The translations under genes were made by a program, and so were the position numbers. 64,000 bases of DNA from Moniliella sp. 'wahieum' (taxonomy: Eukaryota). Every line of letters begins with the position of its first letter. The stretch's first letter is position 1. The notes under the pieces were generated by a model that ran no database searches, was not told the origin of the DNA, and saw nothing but the letters and a program-made list of their open reading frames with translations. The stretch lies in contig RSEE01000047.1 of assembly GCA_003971905.1 (NCBI GenBank), positions 310,001-374,000 on the forward strand, read 5' to 3'. This document shows positions 3,001 through 52,249 of the stretch, piece by piece.

Positions 3001-3349
3001 TGAAGCGCACATAAGTCAAGGCGTCGATACCGACGTGGGTGGCATACCACCAGTCGCTGCGCATGATGGCGGGCCAGATCCAGAGGAGAGGCCAGCGCGG
3101 CAGGGGAGGGGACGGCGCAATAGCGTGGTACTCGCGTGGGGTGTAGAGGTGGGCGAGCTCCCAGCGGTCGGGGTTGTCTGGGACGGTGGGTGGCTCGGAC
3201 GAGAGGCGCCAGCGCGGGAGGCGGCGCAGATGGCGCGACGTCTCGTACCAGCCCACACAGACGATGGCGGCGGCGCCGAGGATGTAGGCATTGGTGGTGA
3301 GGCCGGTGAAGTCGGAGGTGTAGAATTTGCGGTTCTCCAGGTCGGCCAT
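1..3349 (-). CDS. CSC1/OSCA/TMEM63 (DUF221) family osmo-/mechanosensitive cation channel; 3' end probably runs off the window start
   Basis: ATG at 3349 (MADLENRKFY...). N-terminal RSN1_TM-like segments (GIDALTYVRFMR, LWVHLL), cytosolic RTLMFSNLP and AFVTF, PRAQDIIWDRL, and a multi-TM C-terminal half (FFCSYLMLN, IFNPLVIPFAMVY). Frameshift near 1990; intron 976-1047 (GTACGT..CTGAC..TACAG), then VVFKKDLAYVY..GQIYLKRMLRFSLDGLIVAQ. Confidence 0.88.
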
Positions 3350-6300
3350 GGCGCCCGCGGGGAGGGGGTGGCGGGGGTGGGGGCGGGGGCAATGGCGATG
3401 GCGGTGGCGAGGGGGGGGGCAGAGGCGAGGGGACGGGTGGCGGTGGGGGGGGGGCCTGGCTGGCGCCGGTGCGTGTGCGTGTGCTTGAGGGTGCGCTTGA
3501 GCTTGAGGGCTGGGAGGTTGCCGGGCGACGCTGAAGGCAGCGGGAGGTGCGTGTGGGCGATGGATGATGGATGATCGCAGTGAATATTGAATGCTGGGGG
3601 CAGCTGAGGCGCCCTGCTGGGCGAGGGTGCATGCCCGGGCGGGGCGGGACGCGGCGGGGCTGGCGGGGCGATCGGGCAGCCCGCAGCACCGCAGGCACAG
3701 CGCCCCCGTGCGTGTGCTGGCCAACACCAAATTCCCCGCCCCGCCCCGGCCGCCCCGGTGCCGCTGCAGGAGCTGCAGGGCAGCCGCGTGCGCACCCCGC
3801 TGCGCAGAGCACACAGGCGCGGTGCGGCGACCACCCGCGTGCTGCGTCATGCACATCATGCGTCACACTCATGCATCTGCTCTCCTCGAGCTGCCCCCCA
3901 GTCGTCACTGACAAAACATCAGCTTGTCCCCGTTGTCCCTCTGCCCTGCCGCCCGGTTCAGCGGGGGCTCGGGAGAGCTAATCGCGCACATCACACTTGT
4001 GAGGTGCCCATCCTCGCGGCATGCTTCGGTGCAAACCGCATGCGGCCAGTGGCCTGCACCCGCGGGCACCACACCGGAGCACGCCGGCACACACGCCCTG
4101 TGCCCGCCGGCAGCCGCGCTGGGCACAAGCCACCGCAGCAGGCTGGCTGGGTGCTCCAGCCAGAAGAGGCAAGCTGCTTCTCCTGCCCCACACACCACAC
4201 CCCACCCGCCCCAGCCCACACCCATCTTCGTCACGCGCGGGTGGGAGTGTATGGGCCTGCCTCCCTGATCCAAAAAGCGCCTTTTTGTTCTTCTTCCCGC
4301 AGCAGAGAGAGAGCGTCATGCGTCTTCAGCCGCTATCGTTTCCCGCCCCGTTCCTAATTACCTTCCTTCTTTGTTGGCTTCTCGAATGTGTATTTGTCGA
4401 GTGTACCAATCTCTCCAGGGGATATAGCCACATCGTCACACAATCATCATCTCCTCGCCACCGTCGAATTGTGGCTCAGCTACTGTATGAAGTGTCCTCG
4501 CCGCTTCTGAACTCAGTATCGCATTCACACCACCCACAACCAAACCCCACTTTGGCCCCTTCCACACAATTGGACAGCCCACTGCAGTACCGATTACCGT
4601 AGCATCGTCACTCGTCTGACTATGGGCGGTACGTGCCCTATATGCCACACGTATGCACCCGAAAATGCGCAGGGCTGAGACGGGAATTCAGGTCACTCTC
4701 CCAGCCGCCATCTCCGACCCCACCAACGCGGCCAACTGGCTCCCGAGGGAACTACGGTACCGCGTTTAGCTCCTGTGATTGTCGACTCCACAACGCTCCT
4801 GCGCTTCACCCCCACCTCGTTCCTCCTCCCCCCTACCTTCTATTTGGGTACGCTTCTCGACTTCGTCGTCGTGAAAGGCAGTGAGGACCAGGAAGTGTTA
4901 CCCGCTCCCGCTCGTGTGCGGGGGCGCTGATGGGTACCGGTAGGGCGAAGGACAGCAACCACATGGGGGGGGTCGAGGGGGGGGGGGGACCACGGCCAGG
5001 AGAGAGGAATACTAGAGGTGCCGTGCAAACAAGTTTGTTCTCAAAGCAGCTCTGCTTTTCTTCTCCATCTTTTCCCAGATGATGACAGGGCGAGATACCT
5101 AGTATCGGTAAGTAATGCAGTATGATCGGGCAACCACTTCTTCTTACTGGTCGTACTCTCACTTATGTGATGTCTTCTCTCAAAAGTATCAACACACACG
5201 CATCTCCTCTTTGGCTCCATCCAGCTCATACAGCGACCAAAGGGAACAAGTTCCATTTAAACATAATGGTGAACTCGTGGTTGCATATAGCCTGTTTTGA
5301 AGCAGACAAATCAACCCAGGCGAGGGAAACACAAGGGGTGCTTGAGGGATCTACGTTGGGCTCGCCCGCCCGCCTTCGTCCGTTAATACACTCTGTAAAT
5401 ATATCACCTGTTTACTCTTCAACAAACAAAAAAGACGTGTCTGCACACCTAAGGCTCCCTCTCTGCGCAAAGGATTACGTTGGCGCCTCAGCACGCGCCC
5501 CCCAAAGCCCATTCCTCACCCACAATCCACATTTGGGGAAGTTTGGTAACCTCTTTTTCACTTTCGTCCCTTGTTGAACGTACCTTGTTGCTCACCTCAG
5601 GCCTCATGATGCGCTGGGATCGACTCGTTCCTGCGATGGGCATTTCCTTCCTTCGTTCCTTATCTCGCGGGATATCGGGCATGCCAACCAGGACTATTGT
5701 TTTGGGCTTGGCATGACCCTCCCTCTGCCATCCATTGCAGAGAGGTCTTCATCGGGTGCAAGGCAAAGGGAGGACTCTTCTCATTTATTGCATCCCTATT
5801 GTCCTTTTCCTTCGGTCATCTGGCGTGCGGGGAAGCATGCTGGTAAGAGATCGATGCGGTTCCACTGACTCGTCTCAGCCAGGGCTCGCCCGTAACAGAG
5901 AGGTATAGGTATGCGAATCTGAAGCCTTCGTCGGTATCGTTCTCAACCTTCCATTCTACTCCGAGAACTGACGGATGGTGTGGTTCGCACTTTTCTTATC
6001 TCCGTCAGCAGACCAACTTCTTCCTGTATGACACTGTGAGAAAAGCTTCGCACACAGCCTCTCGAAGCTGGAGAGAAGAAGTGCCCACTGTTGGTTGGAC
6101 ATTTTCCGCTTCGGCCCGGCTCCAGAAATAAGTCTTGCATATATAACTTGGATCAGCACGAACGTTTCGAATATACACGCTCGTGTCACGTGTTACATTT
6201 GCAGAATAGCTTCGCAACACAAACATATGCCACGTGTTCGGTTGGAGCCACTCTTTTTCGCGGGCCGCGGCGCTTCTCCACCCGCAGCAACTGTGTGCCT

Positions 6301-8013: not shown

Positions 8014-9568
8014 ATGCGCGCTTTCTTCTCTCTCCCACTCCTGGTCGGGGCCGTTCTATCGGCCCTAGGCGCAGATGCATCTTTTTCCAAGCGAGGTGTT
8101 TCTCGAGCAAATCGTCACAATCTCTTCGGCAAACGGGATGACTACCCGGCGCCGTTGCAAGACCCTTTCTACATCGTCCTGATAATTTGAGCCATTACCG
8201 TCCCGGAGACGTTATCCGCTCCCGCAAGATCATCCCCACCATGAAAGGCCTTGAAGGCGCGGTCGGAGACACGTACCAGATCTTCTACCGCACCACCAAT
8301 TCCGAAGGCCATGCATCTTCGACGGTCACCACTGTTATTCGACCCAAGCAGGGCGGGCCTCCCAAGATGCTCTCCTACCATCTCTGGGAAGATGCTGTCC
8401 AGCGTGACTGCGCTCCCTCCTACACCATCCTCAAGGGTAACGATTCACCCAACGTGATGGTTGTCGGTATGTCTCTCTCCCATTTTCCTCTTGTTCATCT
8501 CTCTGATCAATGCTGACTTTGGCCCTGGTGCGTTTGTGTGCAGGGGATGATGTGCCCATTTGGTTCCAGTTTTTGCTCAACAATGGCATCTCGGTGGTTG
8601 TGCCCGACTACGAAGGCCCCAAATCCGCTCTGTTTGCCGGCTTCACAGCGGGCTACGCCATTCTTGACTCGGCCCGGGCTGTACGCAACTTCCTCAACTG
8701 GCCTGCCAATGCAGAGGTGGCCATGACGGGCTATTCAGAGGGCGCTCACGTCACTGCATGGGCCGCCAACTTGGCCCCCTCGTATGCTTCCGATGTCAAC
8801 ATTGTTGGTGTCACCCATGGCGGCACCCCGATTGACATGGAGTTGACCCTGCGCCACTTTGACAACACCTCCTTCTCTGGTTTCACCATTGGTGGCCTTC
8901 ACGGCATGATGGTTTCGTACAAGAAGTTCAAGAAGGCCATTCACCGTGTGGCTCAACCTGAAGTTCTTACCGATCTCGCCTCCATCATCAAGCCGCCCAC
9001 CTGCCATTCCGTCCTCCGCGGTCCCCTTTACGCCAACAAGCCTTACATGGAGATGCTCAACATCCCAGGCAACCAGTCGGTGTACGATTGGGGTCCCATT
9101 CGCCACATTCTCGACCGCGAAACGCTATGGAACAACAAGTCTTCTGTTGGTGTTGGCTACCCCACCTTCCCTCGCATGATCTACCACGGTGACCACGACG
9201 ATGTGATCAGCTTTGAGGCGGTCAAGGCCTATGTCGAACAGCAGTGTGCTCACGGCGCCAACATTCAATTTAACGTATACGAGGCCAACGCCCACACTGC
9301 GCCCCAGCTGGTCATTGGTGGCGACCTAAACGCCATGCGCTTTGTCTTGGAGGTTTTCCAGATCAACGGCCACAAATTCCAAAAGGGCACCTGTGGCTTC
9401 CCCACCCCGTCTCTTCTCAACTATGGCACTTGGGCCATCACCGCCATCTTGGGAGGTGACATTAGTGAGGCCTTCGACGACATTTCCGACCAAATCTCTG
9501 CTTTCCGTACCATTGGATTTGGTGCCCATGTCAACCAGACCAACCATGTTTACCATTACGTCGAGTAG
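8014..9568 (+). CDS. Secretory lipase (LIP family, Candida antarctica lipase A-like)
   Basis: Signal peptide MRAFFSLPLLVGAVLSALGADA and KR sites. Motifs P..DPFY, YQIFYRTTNSEG, WEDA...CAPSY, VVVPDYEGP, nucleophile GYSEGA, HGDHDDVI and a downstream His. Frameshift near 8175; intron 8467-8543. CATATAAAT box near 7835. Confidence 0.92.
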
Positions 9569-11413: not shown

Positions 11414-13497
11414 TTACGACACGCGTTCGATCGTCACTCCCGATGTGGCATACAGACGAGACATGAAACGACCCCACAGGTACGGTTCCAAGTCCTCTGG
11501 TGCCGTGAGAAGAGCAACCGCCTCGTTGTCAGCGACATCGTCCGAGGGCGGAGGTAGGTCGATCAAATAGTTTTTACGGCTGTTGCGCAGCCGGATGGAC
11601 AGATCAAGATAAGCATCGAGCGTCAGCGAGACATACTCCCAATCGGTCTTGGATCGTAAGGGCTTTGGGAGGATAAGACTTTTAGAGTTCTTATTGGGAA
11701 CGACATGATAGCGTGCCAGCTCCGCATCGAGCAAGGGCTTGGGAACAGGGATGGGACCGCCAACCCCAGATGTGGTACCATTCGAAGCAGCGGAAATATA
11801 TTCTTGCCACAGCACCTCGGTGGGGTATGTGGCATACTCCAATTGAAACTCGGGGGGTGGAGGGTCGGATGGGTTGGCCTCATACGCGCCGTTGGCTTCA
11901 TCCAGATTGAGATGCCACTCGGAATAACCCAATGGAGAGAGGAAACGGTTAGTACGAACGGGAGATGCGGGGTGACGGTAGTAAACCTTCTTGGGATCTT
12001 TCTTCTTCCTGGTCCCGGCCGCATTGTCTTTCCAACCAAAGATGGTTTGACCCACAGATGGCAAAGCCAGATCCGCTTCCTCCTGATTCTGATCCTCGTC
12101 CTCAAGAGAAAAGTCTGATGCATAGTCCTTGGCGCGATAGCGCGTTTCCGAACTCGTATTGTACGTCCAAACGCGCATAGTGGGGTACCAGTTGGGCAAA
12201 AGCGAAGGAGACAGTGATGCAACACTGTAACGGTCCAACACGCCCTCTGTCACGTTCTCTGGGACACGAAGGATATTGTCGATCATGAGTGCAACAATAT
12301 CCTTTGCTTGCACATCATAAGGGGACATCGGACGAACCATGTTCGGCGGGCGGTGGAGCAGACTCTCATACGGGTCCAGCATGGCATCGTCTTCCTCCAT
12401 CAACAGTTGCGCCTCTTCTTCGGGAGGGACGGGGGTGGAGGGATACCCTCTGTATGGAAGGTGAAAAGGTCATAGTTTTGATGACCATAGTGCTGTCCGA
12501 CAATGGATCTTGATAGCGAAGCACCAAGTTACTGTACCGTTGATAGCAGTCCTCAAAGTACCACGCCTTGTTAGGCGGAACATGGCCGATTAGATGTGCC
12601 TGCATCCCACGATTTCTAGTCCGACCCAGCTGGGCCTCGAGCCAGTCCTGGGAAGATAGCATGTCAGTCTAGGGCCCAATGATTCAGGGGGAAAGTACAA
12701 ACCAATTCGAGTCCGCCCGGGTCGCCCCGGCGCGAGTCACAGCCATCAACCATCTTGTTGGACTTGAACCAGTAGATGGTGTTGAGACTGAACACCGTCA
12801 ACGTTGCCGGAATCACATCGCGGGCAAAGTACCCGCCAATGGAGCACACATGCGCTTCCGACTCGGGCAGCAAGCCAAACTGGGTCCACATGCGAGCGTA
12901 CATGAACGTCACATCGTTCGGGCCGGGCCACATGATGTTGTGCGGGTAGATATCATTGTTTCCAATGGCCGGCACGATGGGAACGCCAGGGAACGCCATC
13001 TTGAGCTGTTGGATACACCATCGGTTAAACTCAAAGATTTCGTCCCGCGTTCGAGGGTGGACAGGACCCGTGTCGTGACGAACATTGTCGCCCGTCCAGA
13101 TGATAAAGTCGAGCCCATCCTGGGAGCCAAACGACTTGGCGGCCCAAGCCAGTGCCTTCTCCACCAGCCAGGGAGGGGAGTCGCACTCGGTCCGTGGTGT
13201 GCCCCAGTACCCAGCACGGATCTCCGCCTCGGGATCGTCTAGCTCGTCGGCCATTAGCTGGCACGAAGACTCGACCGTTGCATTGTACGTGTAGAATTGG
13301 TCCGGGTGCATGTCAGTCACATGGAGGAAGCGTCCATGCAGGGGACGGGGATGGGGCGTCGCTGCTGCGCGTGCATCGCTCGTTGCTGGCGGAGCCTCTC
13401 CCTCGAAGAGCAAGGGCGACGCGCGGATCGCCGGCACAGCGCCCAAGGCAAGAATGAGCGTCGTGGTTACAGCCGAAGCGGCGGCAAGGGCACGCAT
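11414..13497 (-). CDS. PPN1: Endopolyphosphatase (calcineurin-like metallophosphoesterase)
   Basis: Hydrophobic N-terminus; motifs GRFLHVTDMHPD, CDSP, IIWTGDNVRHD, IGNND, IGHVPP, SLSPSLLPNWYPTMR, LSPLGYSEW, FQLEYAT. Intron near 12650-12700; frameshift near 12400. Confidence 0.9.
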
Positions 13498-14552
13498 GCG
13501 TGCAAACTTGTGATGGCAAGGGTACAAAACCGAAGCAAATGGAAGGTGGGATGGCGTCGCCGTCGTGGCAAGCGACGGAGAGATGGTGGTGGAGCCGCAG
13601 CAAGTGTTCGTGCCTCCAAAAATAGCGCACTGCAAGCTCGGCGGGCGGGCACGGGCTCCAGATCGGTCCGCAAGGGCAAATTAGGCTAAGTTCGATGACA
13701 TCGATTGAGATGTCGAGACTGAGCAGCGCTCAGGCTGAACGATGAGCGTGACGTTGATGTAAGGGTGGGTTTCGGTGCAACGCTATTTTGCAATTGCAAG
13801 CGGCGTGCTTAATCGTGTCTTATCTTTTCGCAGCACTCGTCGTATGCAGCGCCCCATCTCGCTGGAAGCTTCGAAGGGGCGTCGGCTCTGGTTGGCCTGA
13901 CCTTGTTCGCTCCCCCAAGCACTTCTCCTTTTATCTCCTCATCGACAAAACACCAAGGCCGCTGCGGTACATACAGTCGTGTTTTGTTGAACGTTGATCA
14001 AGTTGATTAATGATTGAGCTCCTGATCGGCCTGATCGCGCGATAATGTGTTTTGTGTGTGGTGCTACCCCTCCGAACCATCAGAGACGGAGACTCCTGAG
14101 GTCAGGCTTGAGGCCAGGCGTGAGATCGCTGCAATTCTTCACGCAATTAATATGGCGCGTTAGCTTCTGCGGGGTGGGCATGGCTTGGAGAAGTGGGCAA
14201 CACAAACTGACGATCAGACCATTCAACTTGGGGTTTATTATATAGTGCGGGATCTGAGACCGCTCCTGCCCCCCTCTGTTAATTGCCCTGGGCGCGCGTT
14301 GCCGCCCCCGCCCCATCGAAAGCGTGTGTGCATGTATATGCTTTGGGGAGAAGAATACCCCATCAACTCGAGTATACCTTCCAGGTGTCCACAGACGTCT
14401 CGATCGTTTGCAATTGTGGTAATTGATCCCTGGTGGCAATGTGCCAGGGGCATACATAAGAGAGAGAGGCCAACTAAATACAATGAGAAAAGATCATATC
14501 TAAGTGCACTCACCCACTTATTAGTGCTTCTTATTCCTACACCTCCATCGCC

Positions 14553-20986: not shown

Positions 20987-23230
20987 CTAGAGCACGCCAA
21001 GCAGCTTTTTGCTCTGCTCATATACCGTGTACGAAATCGACACGGCCGGAATGACCTTGGCCAAGGTTGGGCCCAGGCCGCCATAGAAGCCTCGGATCCC
21101 CTCGCGCACATACGTTTGGCGAAAGGCATCGACAAAGCCATGGTAGATATAAGGGTGGGCTGGCGTGCCACTCGCCTGGAGACGGGTGCGGACCAAGTTG
21201 AGCGGGTACACCGTGATGGCCCCAGCCGAGCCACTAAAGGAGCCAATCATCAGCGTTGCGTACACGGGCATGTCGCTCCGCCCGGCCGCCTGCAAGTAGG
21301 CCAGCTTGGCACCTTCAAACGTCGACATGTCGATCGCACTGTAGGGGAACACGCCCACCAGCCCAGCAGGCAGGCCGCGATAGAAGCCCCGCACACCTCC
21401 TTTGGCGTAGATAGAGCGCACGGTCTGGACAACAGCCATGCTCGTTGACCTCCCGTCCCCACGGCCATTGTAGGAGGAACTCATCATCACCGTCTTGACG
21501 GTCTCGACGGGGTAGATGGCTAGGGAGGCAATGCAATAAATCAGTCAGGTCAGTCTATATTCGCACAATGCAAAACCCCCTGGAGCCAAAGACGGCGGAC
21601 GTACAAAGTTGGGCCATGATCCCGGCCAGACCACCCGAGATGAAACGGGAGCGCGGGGAAATGTCGCGGGGATCCGAGACGTGGTCGACTTGTTGAGCAA
21701 AGACGCGCTTGATCGATTCGTACGAAAAGAACTTGATTGCCGATTCGGGGAAGATCTTGACGACGTTCAGGCCATTGCCGACCCAAAACGAACGCAGACC
21801 ACCGCCTTTGACGTACAGCGTCCGAGCCGCCTCCACCATGCGTCCCGCATGGCCACTCTTCCCGCTGGGTACGGCGGTACTCTGGGTAATCAGGTACACC
21901 TTGAGCCGATCAAAGGGGGCCGTGGCAGTACGAGAAATGCCACCAGCAATGCCGCCAGCGAGAAGATACTTGATCGCCACCCCGCCCGGGAGGATGCTGC
22001 CTTCCTCTTCCAGCTGTTCCTCGTCCAGCGTCTCGTCGTCCACCAGCTCAGCAACGGGCGTCTCGGTGGCGTCCGAGTCGTGATCGGGTCGTTTGGGCTT
22101 GAGCTTGCGCGTCGCATCGTCCAAGTTGCCCGTCACATCCGAATCGCCATCGGCCGTGATACCGGCGCCCCGCGCTCATGCGCGGTATAGTGGTAGTAAC
22201 TGTGCGCCCAGCTGCCCGAGGCCAAATCACGAAAGATGCCACTCTCGCGCCGGAACAGGCCATAGACCTTGCGCGCTTGGTAGAACCGCACAATCTCGGG
22301 CACGCTCGGCGTGCGCGGCAACAGCAGCAGGTAGTCCCGGAATTCGGGCCAGGTCACATACGCCGTCCGACCACGGCTGTCGCCCTCGCTGGGGGGCACC
22401 GTATCCCCCGTGAGGTGCGCGTGCCAGTTGCGACTGCTGCTGAGCGAGGCAATAAAGTCGTGCAGCTGGGTGTCGGAGAGGGTAATGTCGTGCGCGGCCA
22501 AGGCAGCTTCCACTTCGCGCACAGTCAGCCGGCCGTCGCGGTCCTGGTCCAAATGACGAAAGACGCTGTACAGCTCTCGCTCTTTCAGCGCCGCATAGCG
22601 CAGGAAGGCGTGCCACTCGAGCTGCCGTTGGCGCGTGCGGTCGTCGCTGCGCGTCGACAGGGGCGGGGGCGGAGGCGGTGGGAGCAGGCCAAAGACGTGC
22701 GACCCGGGGTATCCATTCTCTGGTCCGAGCGGGGGTAATGGTAGTGCCGTGCCTTCGGGCGCGGGCGGGGAGACAGGGGAGGAGGAAGCAGAAGCAGCAG
22801 GCGGTGGCGATGGCGATGGCGGGGGGTACATGTACGCCGCCACATCGGCCGCCGCATGCGACAGCGTCGATCCCAGCCCGTACTCGCCGTAGTCGCCTGT
22901 CCCCTCGGGATGTGAAGACGGCGGCTCGGGCTGGCACTGGGCCAAGAGTTCGCGCGCATACTGGGGCCGCGCCTCGTCGGGCGCATGGGTCGGCGGCCCC
23001 GCACGGCCATCGGCCGCGGGGGCGTACCCGGGCAAAGGCGCCGGTGCAGCGTTGCCGGCCTGGGCAGCAATCGCGGTGCGCGTCCAGGCATCCTTGGCGC
23101 GGCCAGCAGCAAACGCCTCGTCGCGCGCGGCATCGGTCAACTTGTCGAAGAGACCGGCGAGGCGCAGGAGACGTGCCTGGGGCGCCTCCTGTGCGCGCAC
23201 GGCGGTGAAGCCGTCGTCGTCCGGGGCCAT
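20987..23230 (-). CDS. SAL1: Ca2+-binding mitochondrial ATP-Mg/Pi carrier (SCaMC)
   Basis: EF-hand DQDRDGRLTVRE, TWPEFRDYLLLLP, and three carrier repeats (LAGGIAGGISRTATAPFDRLK, GNGLNVVKIFPESAIKF, YPLNLVRTRLQ). Intron near 21533-21603; frameshift near 22135. Confidence 0.92.
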
Positions 23231-23971
23231 CGTGGGCGGGTGGGGAGTGGGGGGCCGCGGCCGGGCGCGGCGTGGGGAGAGAGGGGGCGGAGGGGGCCAG
23301 GAGGAGAAGAGGGGGCGCAAGCAACACCAAAAAAACGTCCCACCCCACGCGACAGAAGCAGAGATGGGCTGGGCGGGCTGGGCGAGGAGGAGGACGAGCG
23401 GCGGCCTGGGAACCAAAAATCAATTTGCAATGTTCAATCCGCCCGTCCCGTCCCGCCTTGTGCCGACGTGGAGGCACTCATAGTCACGCCCTTGTCGCCC
23501 GCCTCTGAACAGGCAAAATAGACACGTCGGCGCTTGCTTGCTCCGCTTGCTCCGCTTGCTCCGCCAAACATCCCGCGCGCCGGCTCTGCTCTTGCCGCCC
23601 TCGCGCGGCCCCCGCCTGCTCCCGCCCCGCCTGGCCTGTCCAGCGTCTGCGCGTGGGAACCCCACCAGACGAATTAATAATGCGCCCCCGATGCATATCC
23701 CACTCCCCACGTGACCCCCTTGTCACTTGCTGTGCCCTGCCTCGCACGAGCCACTCTCTTGCAGATCTCACCAACTCAGTTCATCGTTGCATCCGCCAGC
23801 ACCAACTGGCACTCCAGCCTCAAGGTGATTAGCAGCTCTGCTTGCTCTCTTCCCTACGGCCTAATGCATCCGCAACTGCCCGGCCTCTCGCCCTCGATGT
23901 GAAAGAAGATGCGCTGGAAAATGCACAACGACTCGTACTTATTTTTTTGCCCCCGGGCAAGCAGCAAGTGC

Positions 23972-25861: not shown

Positions 25862-27531
25862 ATGCTTGCGCCTCGCCTCCTCCGCCCCTCCGCTCCCGCG
25901 TCCTTGCGGCGCGCCCCCGCATCCTCCCCCGTGCCCGCGCCCCCCTGCCCGCCGTCCGTGCGCTGAGCCTGGCCGCCGCGCCTCGCCGTGCGCTCGCCCG
26001 CCCCGCCGCTACGCCCCTGGCCCTGCGCGGCCTCCACTCGTCTGCGTATGCGCTCGACTCGGTCAAGGTCCCCGAGCTCGCCGAGTCCATCACCGAGGGC
26101 ACGCTCAAGCAGTGGCTCAAGCAGCCCGGCGAGTATGTCCAGGAGGGCGAGGAGATCGCCAGTGTCGAGACGGACAAGATTGACGTAGCATCAATGCGCC
26201 CGTCAGCGGCATTTTGACCAAGACGCTGGCCAACCCCGATGACAACATTGAAGTCGGGCATGAAATTGCCATTATCGAGCCCGGTCCTCCTCCTTCCGGC
26301 GGCGCTGCTGCCCCTGCCCCCCAGGCGGCCGAGCCGCCCGCTGCTTCGTCTGCTCCTGCTGCCCCGGCACCTTCGGGCGCGAGCGAGGGCAAGGCCACGG
26401 GCCCTGTGCAGACTGTCAACGTTCCCTCGCTCGCCGAGTCCATCACGGAAGGCACGTTGAAGCAGTGGCTCAAGCAACCTGGGAGTACGTCAAGGAGGGC
26501 GATGAGGTGGCCAGCATTGAGACGGACAAGATTGATGTGAGCGTCAATGCGCCTGTCAGTGGCTTTGTGCAAGAAACCCTGGCCAAGGAGGGCGACACGG
26601 TCGAGGTGGAACACCCGCTGTTCAAGATCCAGCCTGCAGACGCGCCCGCTGGTGGGGCACCCGCTGCTGCTGCACCCGCGCCTGCCGCCAGCGCCCCTAC
26701 CCCTTCTGCTCCTGCCCCCTCCGCAGCCCCCACACCTGCGCCTGCCGCGCCTTCCAAACCGGCGGCCCCTGCGCCCAAGAAGGATGCTGCGGCTGCTCCT
26801 GTGGAGGAGAAGCCCGTGGCTGGCAGCCGTGCCGTGCACCGGGTCAAGATGAACCGGATGCGTTTGCGCATTGCCGAACGGTTGAAGCAGTCGCAAAACA
26901 CGGCGGCCAGCTTGACGACGTTCAATGAAATTGACATGAGCGGCCTGATGGCCTTCCGTGCGCGCCACAAGGACGCCGTGTTGAAGGCGACTGGCGTCAA
27001 GCTTGGCTTCATGAGTGCCTTCTCCAAGGCGTCGGCGCTGGCGCTCAAGGAGATCCCGGCTGCCAACGCGCAGATCGAGGGCCCTGGTCTCGGCGACACG
27101 ATTGCGTACCACGATTATGTTGACTTGGCCGTTGCCGTGTCGACGCCCAAGGGTCTCGTCCCCCGGTCGTGCGCAACATTGAGTCCATGTCGCTGGTGGA
27201 GATCGAGGCGGCGATCGCTGCGCTGGGCACCAAGGCGCGCGACGGCAAGTTGACCCTGGAGGACATGCAGGGCGGCACGTTTACCATCTCGAACGGGGGT
27301 GTGTTTGGGTCGCTGTTTGGCACCCCGATCCTCAACTTGCCCGGCGCGGCCATCTTGGGCATGCACGGCATCAAGGAGAAACCCGTCGTGGTCAATGGCA
27401 AGGTGGAAATTCGCCCCATCATGGTCGTCGCCCTGACGTACGACCACCGTCTCCTCGACGGCCGTGAAGCGGTCACCTTCCTCGTCAAGCTCAAGAACTA
27501 CCTGGAGGACTTGCCTTCGATGCTGATCTAA
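25862..27531 (+). CDS. KGD2: Dihydrolipoamide succinyltransferase (2-oxoglutarate dehydrogenase E2) with two lipoyl domains
   Basis: Arg/Ala-rich mitochondrial presequence; two [20 protein letters not shown] domains; catalytic domain [58 protein letters not shown]. Several indels. Confidence 0.96.
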
Positions 27532-37834: not shown

Positions 37835-38465
37835 ATACGAACTTTCTGTCCCACTTATGGGGGGGGGGGGGGGGACGAGGGAGGTCTGCTTGGACGAAGT
37901 CTCGCTCGCCCCTTCTCCATGGCGCGCGAGGACTTTTGGCTGGCCCTCGCTTCCCCCGGAACAGGGAGATTGCTCACCCCCTCCCTCCCCGCCTTGACAA
38001 GACTTGTCGCTGGTTGACGCGTTGGTCTGTTTCCCGCCTGGGAAGATGCTCTCTGTATCGTGAACACACAAGTAGCCGGTCCGGCTCAGTGTCAAAAATG
38101 TGCAGCTGTGCCCGCACCGGTCCTGAAAGCGCAGGTGACAGGCTGCTGTTATGACAGGTATTTTGGAAGGGGTGGAGGCAGCAGGGTCCCTACCATTTCC
38201 CCCTTCATTTGCTTGGGAGGAGGGGTTGGGATCGTTTTTTAAATCCGAGAGTTCCGAGCAGATCCGAGCAGTGCGCCACCAGGCACATGCTCGTGCCGAT
38301 GTGCCGAGAGAGAGGGGGCAATAACAGTACGTTGAAGACGAGACATCACCTGTGTAGGATTGCGGCTGGAGTGCTAGTAGCACGCCATTGCTTACCTCCT
38401 CCTCTTCCCTTTCCCCACCACCACCACTCTGGGTTCCCCTCCCTACCCCCCCTTTGTTTCCGGTC

Positions 38466-40647
38466 ATGCTCGCCTGGCTGACTCGGCCATTCCGGCGGGA
38501 ACCAAGTACGCAGTACCGGCCCATCGCGTCCGCGGATGATGATCTGCCGCCCCGGCCAGCCTCGGTGCCCCCCTCTGAATCGGGGAGCAGCAGCGACCTG
38601 GAGGCCTCGGAACGGGCCCTCTCCATCTCCAGTGCCGAAGAGGAGGATCTGGACGTACCAGAGACGCCGTTACCCAAGACGGCGTTGACGATACTGCTGT
38701 TGATGCGCATGTCGGAGCCCATTGCCCAGCTGCAAATTTTCCCTTACATTGCTCAGTTTCTCCAGCACGTCCTTCCTACCATTCCGCACGAGGAGCTAGG
38801 GTACTATGCCGGTCTCATCGAAAGCGCCTTTGCCGCGGCCCAGGTCTGCGTCGTACTGTTCTGGGGCCGATTGAGCGACCAGTATGGCCGGAAACCCATT
38901 CTCCTCATCGGTCTCTCGGGCACGTTCGTCTCAGTCGTCTGTTTTGGTATGGGCACCTCCTTGCCATCGCTCATCGCGGCCCGACTGATTGCTGGATTTA
39001 GCAATGGAAACGTTGGTGTTCTCAAGGCCAGCATTGCTGAAATTACCGACTCGTACGTCTTCCTCTGTGCAGTGGGTTTGTGTGCTGACATGGTTTCGCC
39101 TCTAGCACCAACCAAGCCCGGGCATTCGCCTTTGTCCCACTCTCGTATGCGATTGGCACGTTGATTGGTCCCTATTTGGGGGCCAATTTGGCTGACCCCT
39201 ACAATGTATTGGACAAGGAGGGCAACTACCTCCCAGGGAACGAGCACGACCCTCGCTTCTTTGCCCGGTACCCTTTCGCTCTCCCTTGCTTTGTCACTTC
39301 GCTCTTTAACCTTGCCGCCATTCTTCTGGGGACCTTCTTCCTCCAGGAGACCCTGGGCACCGAGCCCCCTGGCTCGCAGCCCGACAAGCCATCCAACCCT
39401 TCGTCAACGAACCCAATCCCAGGCCAGAACCAAGGACAGAGCTACGGCACAATGTCTCCCCCGGCTCCCCGTTCTTCTCTCCACCCGCATCTCGAAGGCA
39501 TGCCAAGTAGCCTGGCATCCGAGGCGGAGGCGCAGCAGTGGAGGCGGAGCGTCCCCTCGGGGCGCACGTCCCCCTCGGAGCGCCAGCGCAGGATCAGTAC
39601 GGAGCGCCGCCTTTCGAGCTTGTACCAGGATGGCGAGCAAAACGAGGGCTCGGCCTTGACTGTGGCCGCGCTGGCTCGGGCGGACCAGTCTCCGCAGTCA
39701 AGGAGACGAAGCAGCGCATGGGACTTGGTCGCTGGCACCCACCGCCAAGTGGGCTCGGACGATCGTGCATTGGCTCCGGCGCTGCATGTGCATAGCCCCG
39801 GTCATTACTTTCACCAGCACCGTTCTTCGAGCAATCTGTCCCATGCACCCTCGGCGCCCTCGGCCGAGGAAATTGAGCATGATCCACCCCATTTGACTCC
39901 TCCTCCTCCCGCAGCTTGATGACCTTTGACATCTTGACTGTCATCTCCTCCCAGGTATGTCTTTCTTCTCTTGTCTGCGTGCCCGAGTCCTACTAATCGA
40001 TCCTGCTACTCGGTTGGGATTGCAAATGCCAGATGCTGCTCAACCTGCTCAACATCTCCTACATGGCCGTGCTGCCTCTGTTTTGCTACACTCGCGTTCA
40101 GCATGGGGGCATCGGCTTCAAGCGCTCTGACATTGGCAACATCCTGGGTGCGACGGGGGCGCTGAGCATCGTGGTCCAACTGGGTCTGCTGCCGAGCTTG
40201 ATGCGGTACTACCGCGGCGCGCTCGGGCTGATTCGTCGCGCCGTTCCGCTGCAAGCGTTGGTGTGGGTTTGTTTCCCGCTGGCGCAGGTGGCTGCGCGTG
40301 TGGCGCAAAGCAAGCACCAGGGGCCGCTCCTGCCCTGGCTTTGCATTGGGGCGATGGTGCTGCTCAAAGTGCTGACCAACACGTCGCTGGTGGCAGCAAC
40401 GGTGCTGATCAACCAAAATGCGCCCTCGCGCGCTGCGTTGGGCGCCATCAACGGCCTCTCGTCCATGTGTGGCTCGTTTAGCCGCACCATTGGCCCCGCG
40501 GCCAGCACTTCGTTGTTTGCCTATTCGGCAGCCCAGGACGCGTCGCTGCTGCGGCGCAACTCGGTGTGGCTCATCCAGATCCTCATCTCGCTCGTCTGCT
40601 TTGGCCTGACGCTGCGCATCCGGCCCGTGGCGCGGCCCCCCGCCTGA
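38466..40647 (+). CDS. Major facilitator superfamily transporter (DHA1/Tet-like) with a long central loop
   Basis: EPIAQLQIFPYI, YYAGLIESAF, MFS motif A WGRLSDQYGRKPILL, ARLIAGFSNGNVGV, LGAINGL..SRTIGP. Introns near 39054-39104 and 39955-40032. Confidence 0.92.
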
Positions 40648-45764: not shown

Positions 45765-46252
45765 GGCTGCAGCTGTTCCTTCGTAATTGTTTCCTTCCCT
45801 ATATTAGTCGCAGTGAACATATATTCGATCAGTCCTGGGCCGTGTCTCAACCTGTCCGCATTGATGGTCCGGACAAGCAAGCACAATCTTCTCCAACGGG
45901 GTCGGACAGTTGTGTTAGCGGTGGAAGTGGGTGAACAGAGTATTCTACTACCATCCATGTATCTGTTGGCGCTAACTAGCCCCTCCGCCCAATATATCTG
46001 TGCAGACATCGAAGAGACCAAGCGGCGGTTAGGCCTTTTTGTTTTTCGCCGCACGCGTCACGAGCGATGATCATCGATCATCACTGGCAGCTTGAAGACA
46101 CACCAGAAGAAACACTTTTGGCTGCCTGAATATTGAATTGATTTCAACGTTCAACGTTCAACCCTCGCCGGCGGATCCCTAGGCCGACCCTAGGACAGAC
46201 CTTTGAAACGCCGTCCCCCCTCACCACCATCAACCCCCACATCGACGCCGCC

Positions 46253-47359
46253 ATGGCAGCACCAACGTCGCTTGCCACGTGCTTCAGGTTACCAACGCTC
46301 AGGACCAGTGCCTTATTTTCGCCCGGGCGTCGCATGTTGGGCTCCAGCGCCCGCGTCTGCGCGCATGACAACCCGCTCGGTCTCCCTCGCAACACTGATC
46401 CGCCTGCCTTCCCGCGCCGAAGAGGCCCCGAGAAGCGCCGCATTCCACACGCCCGCTACGTCGTCGTTGTCTCCTCTGGAAAGGGGGGCGTGGGAAAGTC
46501 CACTGTGGCGGCCAACTTGGCCGTGGCCTTATCCCTCTCCACCCCCGGAGGGCCAGCGCTTGGCCCCCTCCCCCCTGCTGGGCAGCGGCCTCGAGTGGGA
46601 CTGCTCGACTTGGACGTGTTTGGTCCCTCGGTACCTAGGCTACTGGGGCTCAAGGACGCACCAGAGCCGGATTTGACACCGGCTGGGGCACTGGTGCCAC
46701 TCAAGAGCCACGGGCTGAAAGCCATGTCGCTTGGGTTCCTGCTGCCTCCCTCCTCGGCGCTGCCGGGGGGTGGACAGAGCGTGGGAAACGAAGACACGCC
46801 AGTGGTTTGGCGAGGGATGATGGTAATGAAGGCCGTGCAGCAACTGCTGTTTGACGTGGACTGGCGTGGACCCGAGTCGCTTTCTTTGCCCGCCGATGTT
46901 TCGGCACCAGGGGTGGACGTGTTGGTGATCGATATGCCACCTGGGACCGGGGATGTGGCCTTATCCCTGGTGCAGTTGGCCGAAGTCGACGCCAGCGTTG
47001 TTGTCTCGACTCCGCAAGAGGTGGCTCTTGCTGACGCGCGCAAAGGCCTGGCCCTGTTCCGGAAAACAGGCGTGCCTGACCCGGGGCTGCTGCTCAACAT
47101 GGCCCACCTCGTCCTGCCCGATGGCACCAAGAGTGAAATCTTTGGTTCGGCGGCCAAGTTTGACGAGCTGGCTGCCCAGCTGGGTGCACCCGTGCTGGGC
47201 CGAATCCCTATTGACCCCCAACTCAGTCCTGCAGCCGATCAAGGCCGGCCCGCTTCGTTGGACCTTCTGCATCCTACAACGGCGGGTGTGACGGCGCAAG
47301 CGTTTGCACATGTAGCACAGGATGTATGGCAGCTCCTGTTGAAGCCCAAGAAGGTGTGA
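46253..47359 (+). CDS. IND1: Mitochondrial Mrp/NBP35-family P-loop NTPase (Ind1/NUBPL, complex I assembly factor)
   Basis: Presequence, HDNPLGLP, SSGKGGVGKSTVAANLA, LDLDVFGPSVP, VVWRGMMVMKAVQQLLFDVDW, DMPPGTGDV, VVSTPQEVAL. Uninterrupted 368-aa ORF. Confidence 0.9.
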   Translation: MAAPTSLATCFRLPTLRTSALFSPGRRMLGSSARVCAHDNPLGLPRNTDPPAFPRRRGPEKRRIPHARYVVVVSSGKGGVGKSTVAANLAVALSLSTPGGPALGPLPPAGQRPRVGLLDLDVFGPSVPRLLGLKDAPEPDLTPAGALVPLKSHGLKAMSLGFLLPPSSALPGGGQSVGNEDTPVVWRGMMVMKAVQQLLFDVDWRGPESLSLPADVSAPGVDVLVIDMPPGTGDVALSLVQLAEVDASVVVSTPQEVALADARKGLALFRKTGVPDPGLLLNMAHLVLPDGTKSEIFGSAAKFDELAAQLGAPVLGRIPIDPQLSPAADQGRPASLDLLHPTTAGVTAQAFAHVAQDVWQLLLKPKKV

Positions 47360-47379
47360 GTGGCACTCTTCCATCCTTT

Positions 47380-49182
47380 TCACGCCCACGCATCCAGATC
47401 AGCACCCCAATGTCCTCCGTCTTGCCCTTGCGGCGAAAGGAAGGGTTATAGTCCCCCCATACGCCGCGTGCAATGCGGGCAGTGACCAGTTCTGCAATCG
47501 CCAGGCTGGACGTCAATCCCGGACTCTCAATCCCCAAAAGACTCACCAATGCCCCTGCTCCGGCATGATTGTGGGCGGCTGCATCAGGGGCGGGGCCCGA
47601 AGTAGGCCCGGGCTGGGAGGTGGGCAAGGTGAATTGCCACAGGGGCTGGTCCTGCAGTCCTCGGGCAGCATGGAACAAGGGAAGGAAATCGACAAAGCCT
47701 GCCTCGCCCTGGGCAGGAGCTGAAGGTGGACCAATCAGTTTGGGTCGGATCCCCCCATAGGCCGGTGCCAGCTCTTGGGTAGCCAATGCAGGCAAATACA
47801 GATGGACATCTTCGCCCATCTGCTTGAGTCGGTCGCTCCCTTCGGCGAGGGGAGCAAGGTGGTCGGTCCAGTAGTCTGCCGCTTCGTCCCCCTCCTTGGG
47901 AGGGGAAAGCCATTCGCTGTCAGGGCCAAACCGAATGTTGCCTTGCATCAAGAGTGGGTGGGCTGCAGTGCGAGCGTCAGCAGTCTGGTCAAGCAAGCGC
48001 AGAGGGAACAGGGGATAGACGTACTGCCCAACGATTGGTGGGAATACTTAGCCGCGCCCTCGGCCGTGGAACCTCCAAAGTTGGGCGTGGGGTAGATCAA
48101 GTGCTTGACTTGACCCCACACCTGCCGAACGAGGATAAGAAGTATAGTTTCCCTTGCAGTGCCACGCGGGTAGGTGCCCTTGTTCATTCAAGCGAATCAA
48201 TCGTGCTCCGGATTTAGTCACTGCCGTCACTTCCCCAGGCAGGGTCGGGTTGGGTCCGGTACCCGAGCGCAGCAGCTGGTTCATCAGCAGGGGAGCATCG
48301 AGCCCCGCAGCATTGATCACCACCTTGGCCATGAGGACGTCAGCGGGAACACCTTCGGCCGCGGCTTCCTCCACGCTTCCTGTGGTCTGCAAGGCAAACC
48401 CATTTCCATTGGTCCCGTCGCTGTGAGCACGAATATCCACCACGCGAGTCCCAAGCACGAGTTCTGCGTTCTCCGCCGCGTCCAGTTGGTCCACTAGCGT
48501 TTGCATGTACGTGTGGCTGTCGATAATCCCCGTTTGGGGTGACAGGATGGCTGCGGTAATTTCGGCGCTGAGATCAGGTTCCAACTCCCGCGCTTGGTCT
48601 CCCGACAACTTCTCGAGCGGTGCGGGGACAAGGGGGACAAAAGTGTTAGATGCCTTGCTTTGGGGGGTTGGAGGGCCATAGTAGGGTGGGACCAAGAGAT
48701 CTAAGCCCACCGGCAAAGAAGTTACATGGGCCAGCATGCGATCAAAATATGCCGGTTCGGTACCGACCACAAGTTTGCCAACTTTTTGGATGGGAACCTG
48801 GTGCTGCTCACAGAATCGGTAGAGCAGCTCCCGCCCGCGCAGACACAGCGCCGTCTTGTACGATGCGGGGGGGTAGTACAGCCCCGCATGCACCACCTCC
48901 GAGTTGCGGCTGCTGGTTTCCATGCCAACGTGGGCGTGACGCTCAAGGACATACGTACTCTTGGAGGGAAAACGAGCAGCCAACGCTGCACCTACTGCCA
49001 GGCCCACGCGCCACCACCGACCACGACATGGTCCACAGCCACTTGCTCGCCCGAGCGGAACTGGCCCGCGTACGGAAGCCCCGCGTACACGGGCGGGGCA
49101 CTGTCAAGAGGCGAGAGGAGGTGTGCAGACTCCGGATGCACTGAAGCAATCGTCGTGGATCGCCGCGGCGGGCGAGCAGCAT
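47380..49182 (-). CDS. L-2-hydroxyglutarate dehydrogenase-like FAD oxidoreductase (DAO family), mitochondrial
   Basis: DHVVVGGG..GLA, ETSSRNSEVVHAGLYYP..S.K..LC.RG, SPQTGIIDSH, VINAAGL, KGNY, GNIRFGPD, YGGIRPKL, LLGIESPGLTSSLAIAE. Probable end DLDAWA* at 47380. Several indels. Confidence 0.88.
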
Positions 49183-49711
49183 GGCGGGGATGGTGGAGCT
49201 GAGGAGGTAGAGGTCTCCGCCTGAGAAATGAGGAATGAGGCGGGTCAGTGCGGCTCGGCCAGCTCAACATTTCAGTGGAGCACAATCTGGGGTAAACCCA
49301 CCGGGGCTGCACCGGCCGATTTGGGCAGCTGTGATATGTGAGCAGGGGGAAACCCGTCCATCGTGCCTCAGGCTGAGGCCAAGCCCATCCAACCTCAGCA
49401 GCTGCTGATAACCAACTTCCCCATCCAGGGAATCCGCGTTCTCAAGATTGCCCTAGATTGAGAGGAACGCATACCCCATTCAGTCATACAAACACACATC
49501 ATATCAATGTGCTCTGCAGCCAATACCCAAGATGGTCGCGATGATGGAAACGACTCATCTTTTCCTTTCTAAAAGCAAGACACCTTTTCCATTCTCCCTT
49601 GCACGCAGACAAAGTACAGTACACGGGGATGGATTCGAAACGGAACCAAACGAAAATTGCTCTCATGTTGTTCAATTGTATTATGGCGCGTAATTTCGTT
49701 CCGGGCTGGTG

Positions 49712-50889
49712 TCATCGCAATTCTGGGAGCGTCCGGCTTTTCGACTGCGGCGACGCATCGGAGGAAGCGTAGCTGGTATCGGAGGGCGCAGGTGACGGTG
49801 GTCTCTGCGGAGAAGCCGAAGGGAGGGGGGGGACAGGGTGTGAGGGGCGAGAAGAGTGGCCTTTGCGGCGCTGGGATCCATTGCTCTTGGTGGAGGTGGT
49901 GGAGGGGGTGCGGATGTGTTGATGTTGCGTGTGGGTATGGGAATGATGACGATGCCCCGAGGGCGTCGCATGCTTTGCTTTGGGCACCGCCGATTTTCCA
50001 GTCTGTGCCGACCCAGCCTCGGCAGGTTTCCAAATCTCTTTGCGCCACCACCCCCACCCGGCGCCAGTGTAGAGCCAAAAGCGCCAGCCAGCGGACCGGC
50101 GCGCCTCCAGCCGTTCGGATCTGCGACGCTCAAACGCTGCCCGGTACCGCTCGTAACCTTGCCGGAACTTGACTGGCACGCGTGAGGAGAAAATGAGTTC
50201 TCCTCGCGGGTTGGTAGAGGGGGGGATGCCGGACAAGGCATGTCGTCTGCTGGCACCCCCGGCCGATCCAGCGGAGCCCGTTGATGCCAATGAAGAAGCC
50301 GAAGGGGAACGGGGCAAAGTCAGTGTGGAGGATGATCTTTCCTTTGGCTTTTTTTCTCCGCCAGGAGTAGGGGAAGCAAATGGGAAGAAGAAGCGGGAAA
50401 TAATGCCACGCTGGGGAGCGGTGCGCAGGTTGAGATGCATGTTCAGGTTTCGTAATGCGCGGTTAGCCTGTTGGCTGTATCTGTAGGGGAGTAGAACCAG
50501 TTCGTAAGTTCGTAAGCGTGTCCCTGGAGTGAATAGCACGGAACCAACATACCTGTGGGATGCTACGATGCGGTCCGAGTAGAGACCCGAGACAAAGAAG
50601 AGACAGATTGACGTGCCCAAGAACAAGAAGGCGGAGGTAACAAGGTGGTCCAGAAAGACATTGCGGGTGGGGCGAACTGGATGATGTAGGCCAGAGCAAG
50701 GCAGACGGTGATGCTGACTACAAGCAGCGTGCCCCAGCGGCGCTTGCGTTTGCGCAGACGCGAAGCGGACTGTTTGAGGCGCTCCTCAAAGATCAGCAGG
50801 TCGCGGTATGTTGCAGGCTCCGACGGCGGTCCGCGCGCCATGGAGCCGGGGCACTGCGGCGCCCCTTGTCCACCGGCGGCGGCATCCAT
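49712..50889 (-). CDS. SPO7: Spo7, regulatory subunit of the Nem1-Spo7 phosphatase
   Basis: YRDLLIFEERLK, two TM segments, FFVSGLYSDRI, QANRALRNLNMHLN, SSRV...FRQGYERYRAAFERRR. In-frame intron 50481-50552. Confidence 0.8.
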
Positions 50890-51133
50890 CGCTCGGGGGC
50901 TCGAGGCGGAGGTGGGGGTGGAGCGGTGGCAGGGGAATGGCCCCAATCGTCAGGTGGGGGTGGGCCGGTTTTGAAACAGGCAGTTACATAATTTGGTGTC
51001 ACCCCCCCTTATTTTTATTGGGTGCGGCTTCGCTGGTAGGATCGGCTGGGCGCAGCGCATCTCAGATCGCACTTGCGACGGCCGCTACCCCGCTCCCGCC
51101 ACACTCGGCGAGCCGCACACGCCCACCACCCTC

Positions 51134-52249
51134 ATGTTCCGCCGGAAGCACAAGGAGCGCGACGCTGATGCTGCCGCTGGCGCCGCCGCCTCAGCCCAGC
51201 CGCAGGAGGCGCACGCCCACCCCCACCATCACCTCGGCCTCCTCCGCCACACCTCCCGTGAGCCCACCCGATCCAACACTAGCAGCCTGACTGCCGCGCC
51301 TATGCCCACCCCGGGCCGCCCCGGTCACCTCAACCAACACCAACAGGCTGCGCTCGATTCTCTTCGCGCCAAAGCGGTCGAGAGCAAGTTCTACGATCCC
51401 ACTCGCCACGACGATGCGTGTCTCTGCCGTTTTCTGAGGGCGCGAAAATGGGACCTGGATGCTACCTTTGCCATGTTTTCCGAGGCGGAGCAGTGGCGGC
51501 GTGATTTCAAGGTTGATGAGCTATACCAATCGTTTACCTTCCCAGAAAAAGAGGCGGTCAACGAGCTGTACCCTCAGTTCTACCACAAAACCGACAAGGA
51601 TGGTCGTCCGGTCTACATCGAGCAACTGGGCAAAGTCGATCTCAAGGCGTTGTACAAGATCACCACGCCAGAGCGGATCATGCAGAAGCTCGTGGTTGAG
51701 TACGAAAAGTTCCAGCGCGAGCGCTTGCCCGTCTGCTCGTCCGAGCGAGAGGAATTGATCGAGACGAGCTGCACGATCATGGATCTGAAGAACGTGGGTG
51801 TGTCGCAATTCTGGAAAGTATCAGGGTACGTGCAACAGGCATCCAAGATTGGCCAGTACTACTACCCTGAGACGATGGGAAAGTTTTACATCATCAATGC
51901 GCCCTACATTTTCACCACTGTTTGGGCTGTTGTCAAGGCCTGGCTCGATCCCGTCACGGTCGAGAAGATCAAGATTCTGGGGAATGGGTACGAGCGTGAG
52001 CTCGCCCAGCAGATTCCGCTCGAAAATCTTCCGGCCCATTTGGGAGGCAAGTGCCGCTGTTCAGAAGGCTGCTCCTTGTCGAATGCCGGGCCATGGAACA
52101 CCCCTCGTGGCGAGGCGATCATCCGCCAAGCAGAAGAGGACCGGCGCCACAAGGCCCTCCTATTCCGTGACAACGGGTCCAACGTCCAAGCTGCCAACCT
52201 AGTAGCAAAGCAACCTCTGATCACATCTTTCATCAGTTGGCTCCGCTAG
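51134..52249 (+). CDS. SEC14: Phosphatidylinositol/phosphatidylcholine transfer protein (CRAL-TRIO)
   Basis: DDACLCRFLRARKWD, YPQFYHKTDKDGRPVYIEQLG, IETSCTIMDLK, QYYYPETMGKFYIINAP, LDPVTVEKIKILG, QIPLENLP. The true C-terminus may differ because of an indel. Confidence 0.93.
   Translation: MFRRKHKERDADAAAGAAASAQPQEAHAHPHHHLGLLRHTSREPTRSNTSSLTAAPMPTPGRPGHLNQHQQAALDSLRAKAVESKFYDPTRHDDACLCRFLRARKWDLDATFAMFSEAEQWRRDFKVDELYQSFTFPEKEAVNELYPQFYHKTDKDGRPVYIEQLGKVDLKALYKITTPERIMQKLVVEYEKFQRERLPVCSSEREELIETSCTIMDLKNVGVSQFWKVSGYVQQASKIGQYYYPETMGKFYIINAPYIFTTVWAVVKAWLDPVTVEKIKILGNGYERELAQQIPLENLPAHLGGKCRCSEGCSLSNAGPWNTPRGEAIIRQAEEDRRHKALLFRDNGSNVQAANLVAKQPLITSFISWLR

Follow-up and report, generated by a model that had tools for sequence, protein, structure and literature searches.

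The KGD2 gene and its neighbourhood

The window, that is, the whole stretch of 64,000 nucleotides that we analysed, carries at 25862-27531 of the forward strand a KGD2 gene without introns, whose product is the mitochondrial E2 of 2-oxoglutarate dehydrogenase (Kgd2, or E2o). In such a protein the lipoyl-lysine arm picks up a succinyl group at E1o and delivers it to the E2o site, after which E3 re-oxidises the arm. In the window's Kgd2 a putative presequence is followed by an outer lipoyl domain (LD1), an Ala/Pro linker, an inner lipoyl domain (LD2), a second linker and the catalytic domain, and the same two-domain layout is found in P0001, an intact 566-aa protein of a related species. The parts of the gene, with the evidence for each, are:

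25862..26055, + strand: putative mitochondrial presequence, Arg-rich, with at least one frame break in the window copy (sequence and reading frames)
26062..26279, + strand: LD1, the outer, N-terminal lipoyl domain (Pfam PF00364; other copies; P0001 model)
26176..26178, + strand: lipoyl-lysine of LD1, in ETDK (invariant column K109 among 19 multi-domain E2o)
26280..26414, + strand: linker 1, Ala/Pro-rich, ~45 aa (disordered in the P0001 model; bridged by the X1 contig described below)
26415..26632, + strand: LD2, the inner lipoyl domain (Pfam PF00364; other copies; P0001 model)
26528..26530, + strand: lipoyl-lysine of LD2, in ETDK (invariant column K230 among 19 multi-domain E2o)
26633..26833, + strand: linker 2, Ala/Pro-rich, without a peripheral-subunit-binding domain (PF02817 search)
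26834..27531, + strand: succinyltransferase catalytic (core) domain and stop (Pfam PF00198)
27445-27447, + strand: His codon of the DHRLLDG motif of the core domain (catalytic His-x-x-x-Asp motif present)

An earlier note on this DNA had claimed two complete lipoyl domains for this gene, and profile searches bear this out: LD1 and LD2 are spread over three frame pieces, each of which passes the Pfam cut-off for Biotin_lipoyl (PF00364), with 2-oxoacid_dh behind, and both domains recur in the other copies of the gene and in P0001. LD1 and LD2 are offset by 353 nt and are 77-85% alike in DNA. Each keeps its lipoyl-lysine and is followed by an Ala/Pro linker of its own, as the note had also described; where its reading of the two domains has gaps, the frame is broken by a single base, after 26186 and after 26483. 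In an AlphaFold model of P0001, built on an alignment of 19 multi-domain E2o, LD1 and LD2 form two separate 8-strand beta-sandwich domains (pLDDT ~83-87), the linkers are disordered and the core is as usual. The presequence of P0001 carries the same R-10-like motif as that of the window's Kgd2 (both read by eye); we take the presequence end to fit an R-10 two-step MPP/Oct1 cleavage motif, so that LD1 would stay in the mature protein.

KGD2 stands head to head with LEU2 (3-isopropylmalate dehydrogenase, PF00180; 23972-25180, reverse strand), the two start codons lying ~680 nt apart, and this arrangement is kept in all four copies found in the assembly; the stretch between the genes is a possible bidirectional promoter. 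Directly downstream of LEU2 is a gene with EF-hand and mitochondrial-carrier domains (21555-23419, reverse strand), presumably a Sal1/SCaMC-like ATP-Mg/Pi carrier. A Pfam scan of the 42 long frames of the window gave further matches at 990-3862, 8507-9565, 12667-13680, 38358-39161, 46142-52246 and 58508-59200, which include an RSN1/OSCA-type channel, a secretory lipase, a metallophosphoesterase, an MFS transporter, a NUBPL-type P-loop NTPase, an FAD oxidoreductase, Spo7, CRAL/TRIO and glycosyl hydrolase 88. A G-protein alpha gene is paired with an SPFH/Band 7 gene at 52668-55798; related pairs on contigs C41 and C42, and again on C7 and C54, suggest duplicated syntenic blocks.

Copies of the gene and identity of its product

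We searched the assembly (69.5 Mb, 223 contigs) at the protein level and found four copies of KGD2, on contigs C47 (the window), C54, C10 and C7, which differ by 29-48 substitutions per ~1655 aligned bases. Both lipoyl domains are present in all four (two ESITEG and two ETDK motifs each), and copy C7 is open through LD1 and LD2 in a single 370-codon frame. At least four frame breaks interrupt the window copy: after 26186 in LD1, after 26483 in LD2, at 27160 and in the presequence region. The first two, each a missing base, occur in this copy alone among the four; most KGD2 indels are private to one copy, and copies of the neighbouring LEU2 are broken like those of KGD2. Because the indels are mostly private, C7 is open and LEU2 is broken as well, the breaks look like long-read assembly noise, and the window's own copy is probably intact.

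Independent sequence comes from two public sequencing runs, each with small parts of the gene; no RNA run was among those listed. A 232-nt short-read contig from run X1 matches 26218-26449 with a single mismatch and bridges linker 1, reaching 62 nt into LD1 on one side and 35 nt into LD2 on the other; from run X2, a 222-nt contig matches 26512-26733 with 3 mismatches. The earlier note had argued against an assembly duplication. The X1 contig that bridges the domains, together with the four two-domain copies, the intact P0001 and the 30% protein divergence between LD1 and LD2, establishes that the duplication is not an assembly artefact.

A one-domain KGD2 paralog was not found: the protein search gave the four loci and one weak Lat1-type match, and a PF00198 search gave only the four KGD2 loci and Lat1/branched-chain loci, both counts being lower bounds. 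Splicing to a one-domain form is unsupported, C7 having seven donor-like sites and no CTRAC branch site in the scanned region. We also rejected a genome-wide expansion of lipoyl domains, since tandem pairs occur at the four KGD2 loci only among 37 PF00364 matches.

The identification of the gene as fungal KGD2 stands. Its core matches PF00198; P0001 passes the TIGR01347 sucB model (561 bits against a cut-off of 379) and PRK05704, and fails E2p (PDH E2) models; the best PDB match is 7q5q, an E2o (E 4e-167); and the window's catalytic domain, 96% identical to P0001, nests among fungal Kgd2 in a catalytic tree. A PDH E2 (Lat1/E2p) or a Lat1-Kgd2 chimera was considered and dismissed, as both domains are of the E2o type and a subunit-binding domain is absent: none of the 16 PF02817 matches in the genome falls at a KGD2 copy. 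The lipoyl domains of the genome's Lat1 and Pdx1 carry the signature AMSPTMTEG ... ETDKA, one domain each at the five loci inspected. Two matches to lipoate synthase are present in the genome, and a search of the ESM Atlas returned generic lipoyl clusters only. Eukaryotic E2o is described, in the accessible text of two papers, as having no peripheral-subunit-binding domain and as recruiting E3 through Kgd4/MRPS36 (PMC9974300, PMC4214781); the genome has a Kgd4 adaptor gene (one PF10937 match over cut-off). Because this gene is present, with an E3-binding domain at no KGD2 copy, the altered E3 recruitment that the earlier note had entertained is unsupported, and the adaptor gene rules out the extra lipoyl domain as a replacement for Kgd4.

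Related genes are organised differently in this genome. KGD1 (7 loci) and LAT1 (8 loci) each comprise four divergent classes and PDX1 (6 loci) comprises three (L010-L014, L019-L034), the classes being 11-26% apart in DNA (dS 0.4-2.8) and mostly near-identical pairs, whereas only four close copies of one class were found for KGD2 and LEU2. These comparisons suggest that the genome is that of an old polyploid or hybrid. The four KGD2 loci encode eight lipoyl domains, against 7 loci of KGD1 and 8 of LAT1, and it is a tentative idea that a second lipoyl domain balances dosage between the four paralog classes of KGD1 and LAT1 and the single class of KGD2. Over their N-terminal 56 residues, the lipoyl domains of Lat1 and Pdx1 are up to 77-79% identical (L010, L014 and L030 versus L011-L013, L032 and L033), a likeness seemingly high for old paralogs that may reflect conversion between lipoyl-domain sequences.

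Distribution, origin and divergence of the two domains

Two lipoyl domains were present in 7 of the 120 best matches of a first list and in 2 of the 75 new rows of a second (113 and 73 having one); these are not frequencies, because the lists are ranked by a score that favours two-domain proteins. At 50% identity, 28 of 150 representatives, bacterial proteins included, have two or three lipoyl domains. Named two-domain fungi are Saccharomycodes ludwigii (SSD58482.1), Hanseniaspora valbyensis and H. guilliermondii, Chytriomyces confervae, C. hyalinus, Obelidium and Siphonaria; further fungal rows comprise a basidiomycete group (P0121/P0253/P0004) and two yeast-like branches (P0023, P0128). Outside the fungi, we found two domains in E2o of the oomycete [Pythium] brassicae, the dinoflagellate Crypthecodinium cohnii and the chrysophyte Epipyxis sp., among animals in the horsehair worm Gordionus sp., P0379, and in many bacterial proteins; a protist-like E2o, P0183, has three. 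P0002 (Rhizoctonia, 543 aa) was discarded as a two-domain candidate: its high score comes from a repeated catalytic part, and it has one lipoyl domain.

The earlier note took one lipoyl domain as the rule for yeast and animal E2o. A single domain survives as the rule for the large majority of fungal rows but not as a generality, and the rarity that the note implied is not borne out: two-domain forms recur in five fungal groups or more, as well as in many bacteria and other eukaryotes. The opposite possibility, that the form is common across basidiomycetes, is not what our sample contains: 5 of 29 basidiomycete-side rows, in two groups, have two domains. Because the same doubling is found in other fungi, protists, a worm and bacteria, the two-domain E2o is not unique to the window's lineage; judged from the sequences, the variant is a recurring one and no isolated case, the same change having arisen repeatedly in eukaryotes. 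The window's Kgd2 itself departs from the textbook single N-terminal lipoyl domain and, with other database E2o breaking the rule too, a single lipoyl domain is no true defining feature of eukaryotic E2o.

We then placed the duplication on two trees. For the catalytic domain we built a tree from 48 chosen rows. It joins the window to P0001 (100/99) and puts beside this pair, as its sister group, 23 rows that all have one domain, among them Violaceomyces, Tilletia, Mycosarcoma, Exobasidium and Malassezia; the pair appears to be a deep Ustilaginomycotina-type branch, perhaps of Moniliellomycetes to judge from its position, and domain number changes five times on the tree. In a tree of 54 single lipoyl domains, which has only 77 columns, LD1 and LD2 of the window and P0001 make up one starred clade (99/96), within which the LD1s group together (100/99) and the LD2s together (100/94). 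Because first domains pair with first and second with second, the duplication predates the split of the two species. With the exception of P0023, the two-domain fungal groups each have a starred domain clade to themselves. AU tests reject single clades for the two-domain Dikarya as a whole (p 0.002), for the two-domain basidiomycetes (p 0.025) and for the full set of first domains (p 4e-91), but not for the first domains of basidiomycetes (p 0.095). Given the domain clade of its own, which emerged from the tree of individual domains that the earlier note had proposed, and the 23 of 23 one-domain sister rows, a lineage-specific duplication, as the note had suggested, is most likely.

Between LD1 and LD2 of copy C7, 51 of 73 residues are identical, with a dS of 0.86 and a dN of 0.21. 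Variable codons across the four copies number 7 synonymous and 0 non-synonymous per domain (14 and 0 in total), and both domains are under purifying selection. Identity is 42/49 over the first 49 residues and 9/24 over the last 24, after NAPVSG (p 7e-5), which agrees with the earlier remark that the copies differ at synonymous sites and in their second halves. This C-terminal third is identical between the domains at 9/24 and 7/24 positions, as against 15-19/24 in ten other two-domain fungal proteins, and is kept between species (LD1 22/24 and LD2 18/24 versus P0001). The excess divergence of the tail gives p 0.15 against the weakest other lineage (9/24 versus 15/24) and p 0.02 against 18/24. 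At similar dS, dN between LD1 and LD2 is above that of the paralogous Lat1 or Pdx1 lipoyl domains of the genome (0.01-0.09). The dS between LD1 and LD2 lies within the range between the genome's paralog classes (0.4-2.8), but the idea that LD1 derives from a paralogous KGD2 since lost is unsupported, paralogous lipoyl domains being 86-98% identical versus 70% here. In the domain tree, internal branches are long (0.35, 0.21) and tips short; dS is 0.67 in the first two-thirds and 1.46 in the rest, a difference that is not significant (p 0.24).

Kept in both domains are the beta1-beta2 loop (LAESITEG, E1 recognition) and the lipoyl turn (ETDKIDV), and net charge is alike (-10 and -8). Across 19 multi-domain E2o, neither domain shows more than slight variation, if any, at the lipoyl-lysine, at the Asp preceding it or in the E1 loop. 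E1 recognition is reported, in the accessible part of PMC6270654, to rest chiefly on the lipoyl-lysine half and the beta1-beta2 loop; because these are the same in LD1 and LD2, both should be read by Kgd1. The diverged and then fixed tails and the high dN fit specialisation as well as redundancy, and are the one hint of specialisation.

A second arm and its known counterparts

The best explanation, and one that we consider probable, is that the lipoyl domain and its linker were duplicated within KGD2 and that both arms work largely redundantly. An intragenic tandem duplication would have taken place in a deep-branching Ustilaginomycotina-type lineage, before the split from the species encoding P0001, and would have added the extra domain on the N-terminal, outer side. 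In P0001 the distance to the core is 112 aa for the inner domain and 233 aa for the outer, the one-domain median being 116 aa (n=186); addition outward is indicated because the inner-domain distance matches that of one-domain E2o. Both lysines would be lipoylated and both arms reductively succinylated by Kgd1 and re-oxidised by Lpd1, so that a 24-mer core would bear 48 arms, the outer ones with about twice the reach. By analogy with multi-lipoyl PDH E2, the arms would be largely redundant; the lipoyl domains of E. coli E2p can act redundantly, according to the accessible text of PMC8421416. The gain would probably be modest, in active-site coupling or in holding peripheral E1o and E3, with E3 still recruited by Kgd4. 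It has been proposed that lipoyl domains and linkers help to keep E1o and E3 near the core in complexes without a subunit-binding domain (PMC11436768, PMC10203282, in part), and by analogy this is where a second arm could matter.

The arms could instead divide the work, LD1 being mainly a tether for distant E1o and E3 or serving another partner (a second E1 or lipoylation enzymes are candidates) and LD2 carrying most of the flux. Such a division would account for a C-terminal third that diverged and then froze (LD1 matches LD2 at 9/24 positions and the relative's LD1 at 22/24), for long internal branches with short tips and for a dN above that between paralogous lipoyl domains, and it suits the proposed role of lipoyl domains and linkers in holding E1o and E3. 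We nevertheless think it unlikely: the two domains have the same recognition loop and lipoyl turn and a similar net charge, most of the diverged stretch falls outside the half reported as read by E1 (PMC6270654, accessible part), and, set against the weakest other lineage, the excess in divergence does not reach significance. Broader, and equally tentative, is the view that lipoyl-domain number in mitochondrial E2o works as an evolvable dial, which lineages have turned many times and independently, with the outer domain specialised here, where it may be a long-reach tether or serve a different partner. At the other extreme, the second domain would be a nearly neutral passenger, folded only because a misfolded N-terminal domain is toxic. 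Most fungi manage with one lipoyl domain, and E. coli E2p reportedly works with fewer than its full set (work by Guest et al. in 1985 is said to have established this); a passenger is nonetheless very improbable, given the near invariance of lipoyl-lysine, Asp and E1 loop in both domains of 19 multi-domain proteins, and given that a precise deletion would remove the extra domain, which has yet persisted to a dS of ~0.9.

Other alternatives concern the origin of the second domain. An older duplication, in the basidiomycete ancestor or wider, may have been mostly lost since, gene conversion mimicking lineage specificity. The window's lineage is the deepest in its clade, with the two-domain group P0121/P0253/P0004 next outside; one gain and two losses take only one step more than two gains; the clade of basidiomycete first domains escaped rejection; and the domains of Saccharomycodes group within species, which suggests that gene conversion happens and to which the lower dS of the first two-thirds would correspond were the difference significant. 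This origin is improbable in view of the separate starred clades of the two-domain fungal groups (P0023 excepted), the strong rejection of a single ancient first-domain clade and the large majority of one-domain forms in both lists. That the locus is an assembly artefact or a pseudogene has a negligible probability, and for the duplication it is refuted: although the window copy has its frame breaks, each outside the X1 and X2 contigs, the indels of the four copies are mostly private, C7 keeps an open frame, a contig bridges the domains, a relative is intact, and the domains are strongly divergent and under purifying selection; essential-type genes nearby, LEU2 for one, have breaks in other copies as well.

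On the favoured reading, of two largely redundant arms, precedent from PDH suggests a small effect, and this is a modest variant with chemistry, pathway and adaptor unchanged. Reviews and recent structure papers give eukaryotic E2o a single lipoyl arm; together with the other lineages found, the locus corrects this textbook generalisation, lipoyl-domain number having varied and changed at least five times in fungi alone. A two-domain eukaryotic E2o is not described in the literature searched, which includes the accessible text of PMC8146983, PMC9974300 and PMC9681731 and has subscription journals and supplements outside its scope; the strings 'tandem' and 'duplicat' are absent from the main text of PMC9974300. 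The named two-domain proteins are already in public databases, and we found no paper noting the feature. Matched one- and two-arm orthologues (Saccharomyces versus Hanseniaspora/Saccharomycodes; the window's lineage versus its smut relatives) would bear on what an extra arm buys, and if lipoyl-domain number is indeed such a dial, nature would have provided replicate experiments on why an E2 chain should have one, two or three lipoyl domains.

The window's Kgd2 shares with fungal and animal E2o (Kgd2/DLST, 7q5q) the catalytic domain, the DHRLLDG motif, the lack of a subunit-binding domain, a Kgd4-type adaptor gene and the distance from inner domain to core; it differs in having two lipoyl domains where E2o is described, in the accessible text of PMC8146983, with 'a single lipoyl domain'. 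The proteins of Saccharomycodes, Hanseniaspora, Chytriomyces, Obelidium and Siphonaria, P0121/P0253/P0004, P0023 and P0128 have an identical LD-linker-LD-linker-core layout, but they sit on branches separate from the window in both trees, and their C-terminal thirds are more alike (15-19/24) than those of the window and P0001 (7-9/24). In distant lineages, [Pythium] brassicae, Crypthecodinium cohnii, Epipyxis, Gordionus and P0183 carry tandem lipoyl domains on a mitochondrial-type E2o; for those placed in the trees, a set without Epipyxis and Gordionus, the origins look separate. Bacterial SucB with two lipoyl domains (Fulvivirga P0192, P0148) likewise has tandem arms and passes the sucB models; unlike the window's Kgd2, P0192 and P0148 keep the subunit-binding domain (PF02817), and so do multi-lipoyl PDH E2 proteins, of which E. 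coli E2p has three lipoyl domains and mammalian E2p two. To our knowledge, the docking of kinases and phosphatases by lipoyl domains is not a known role in E2o. The lipoyl domains of mammalian PDH do dock both, as stated in the accessible part of PMC6270654.
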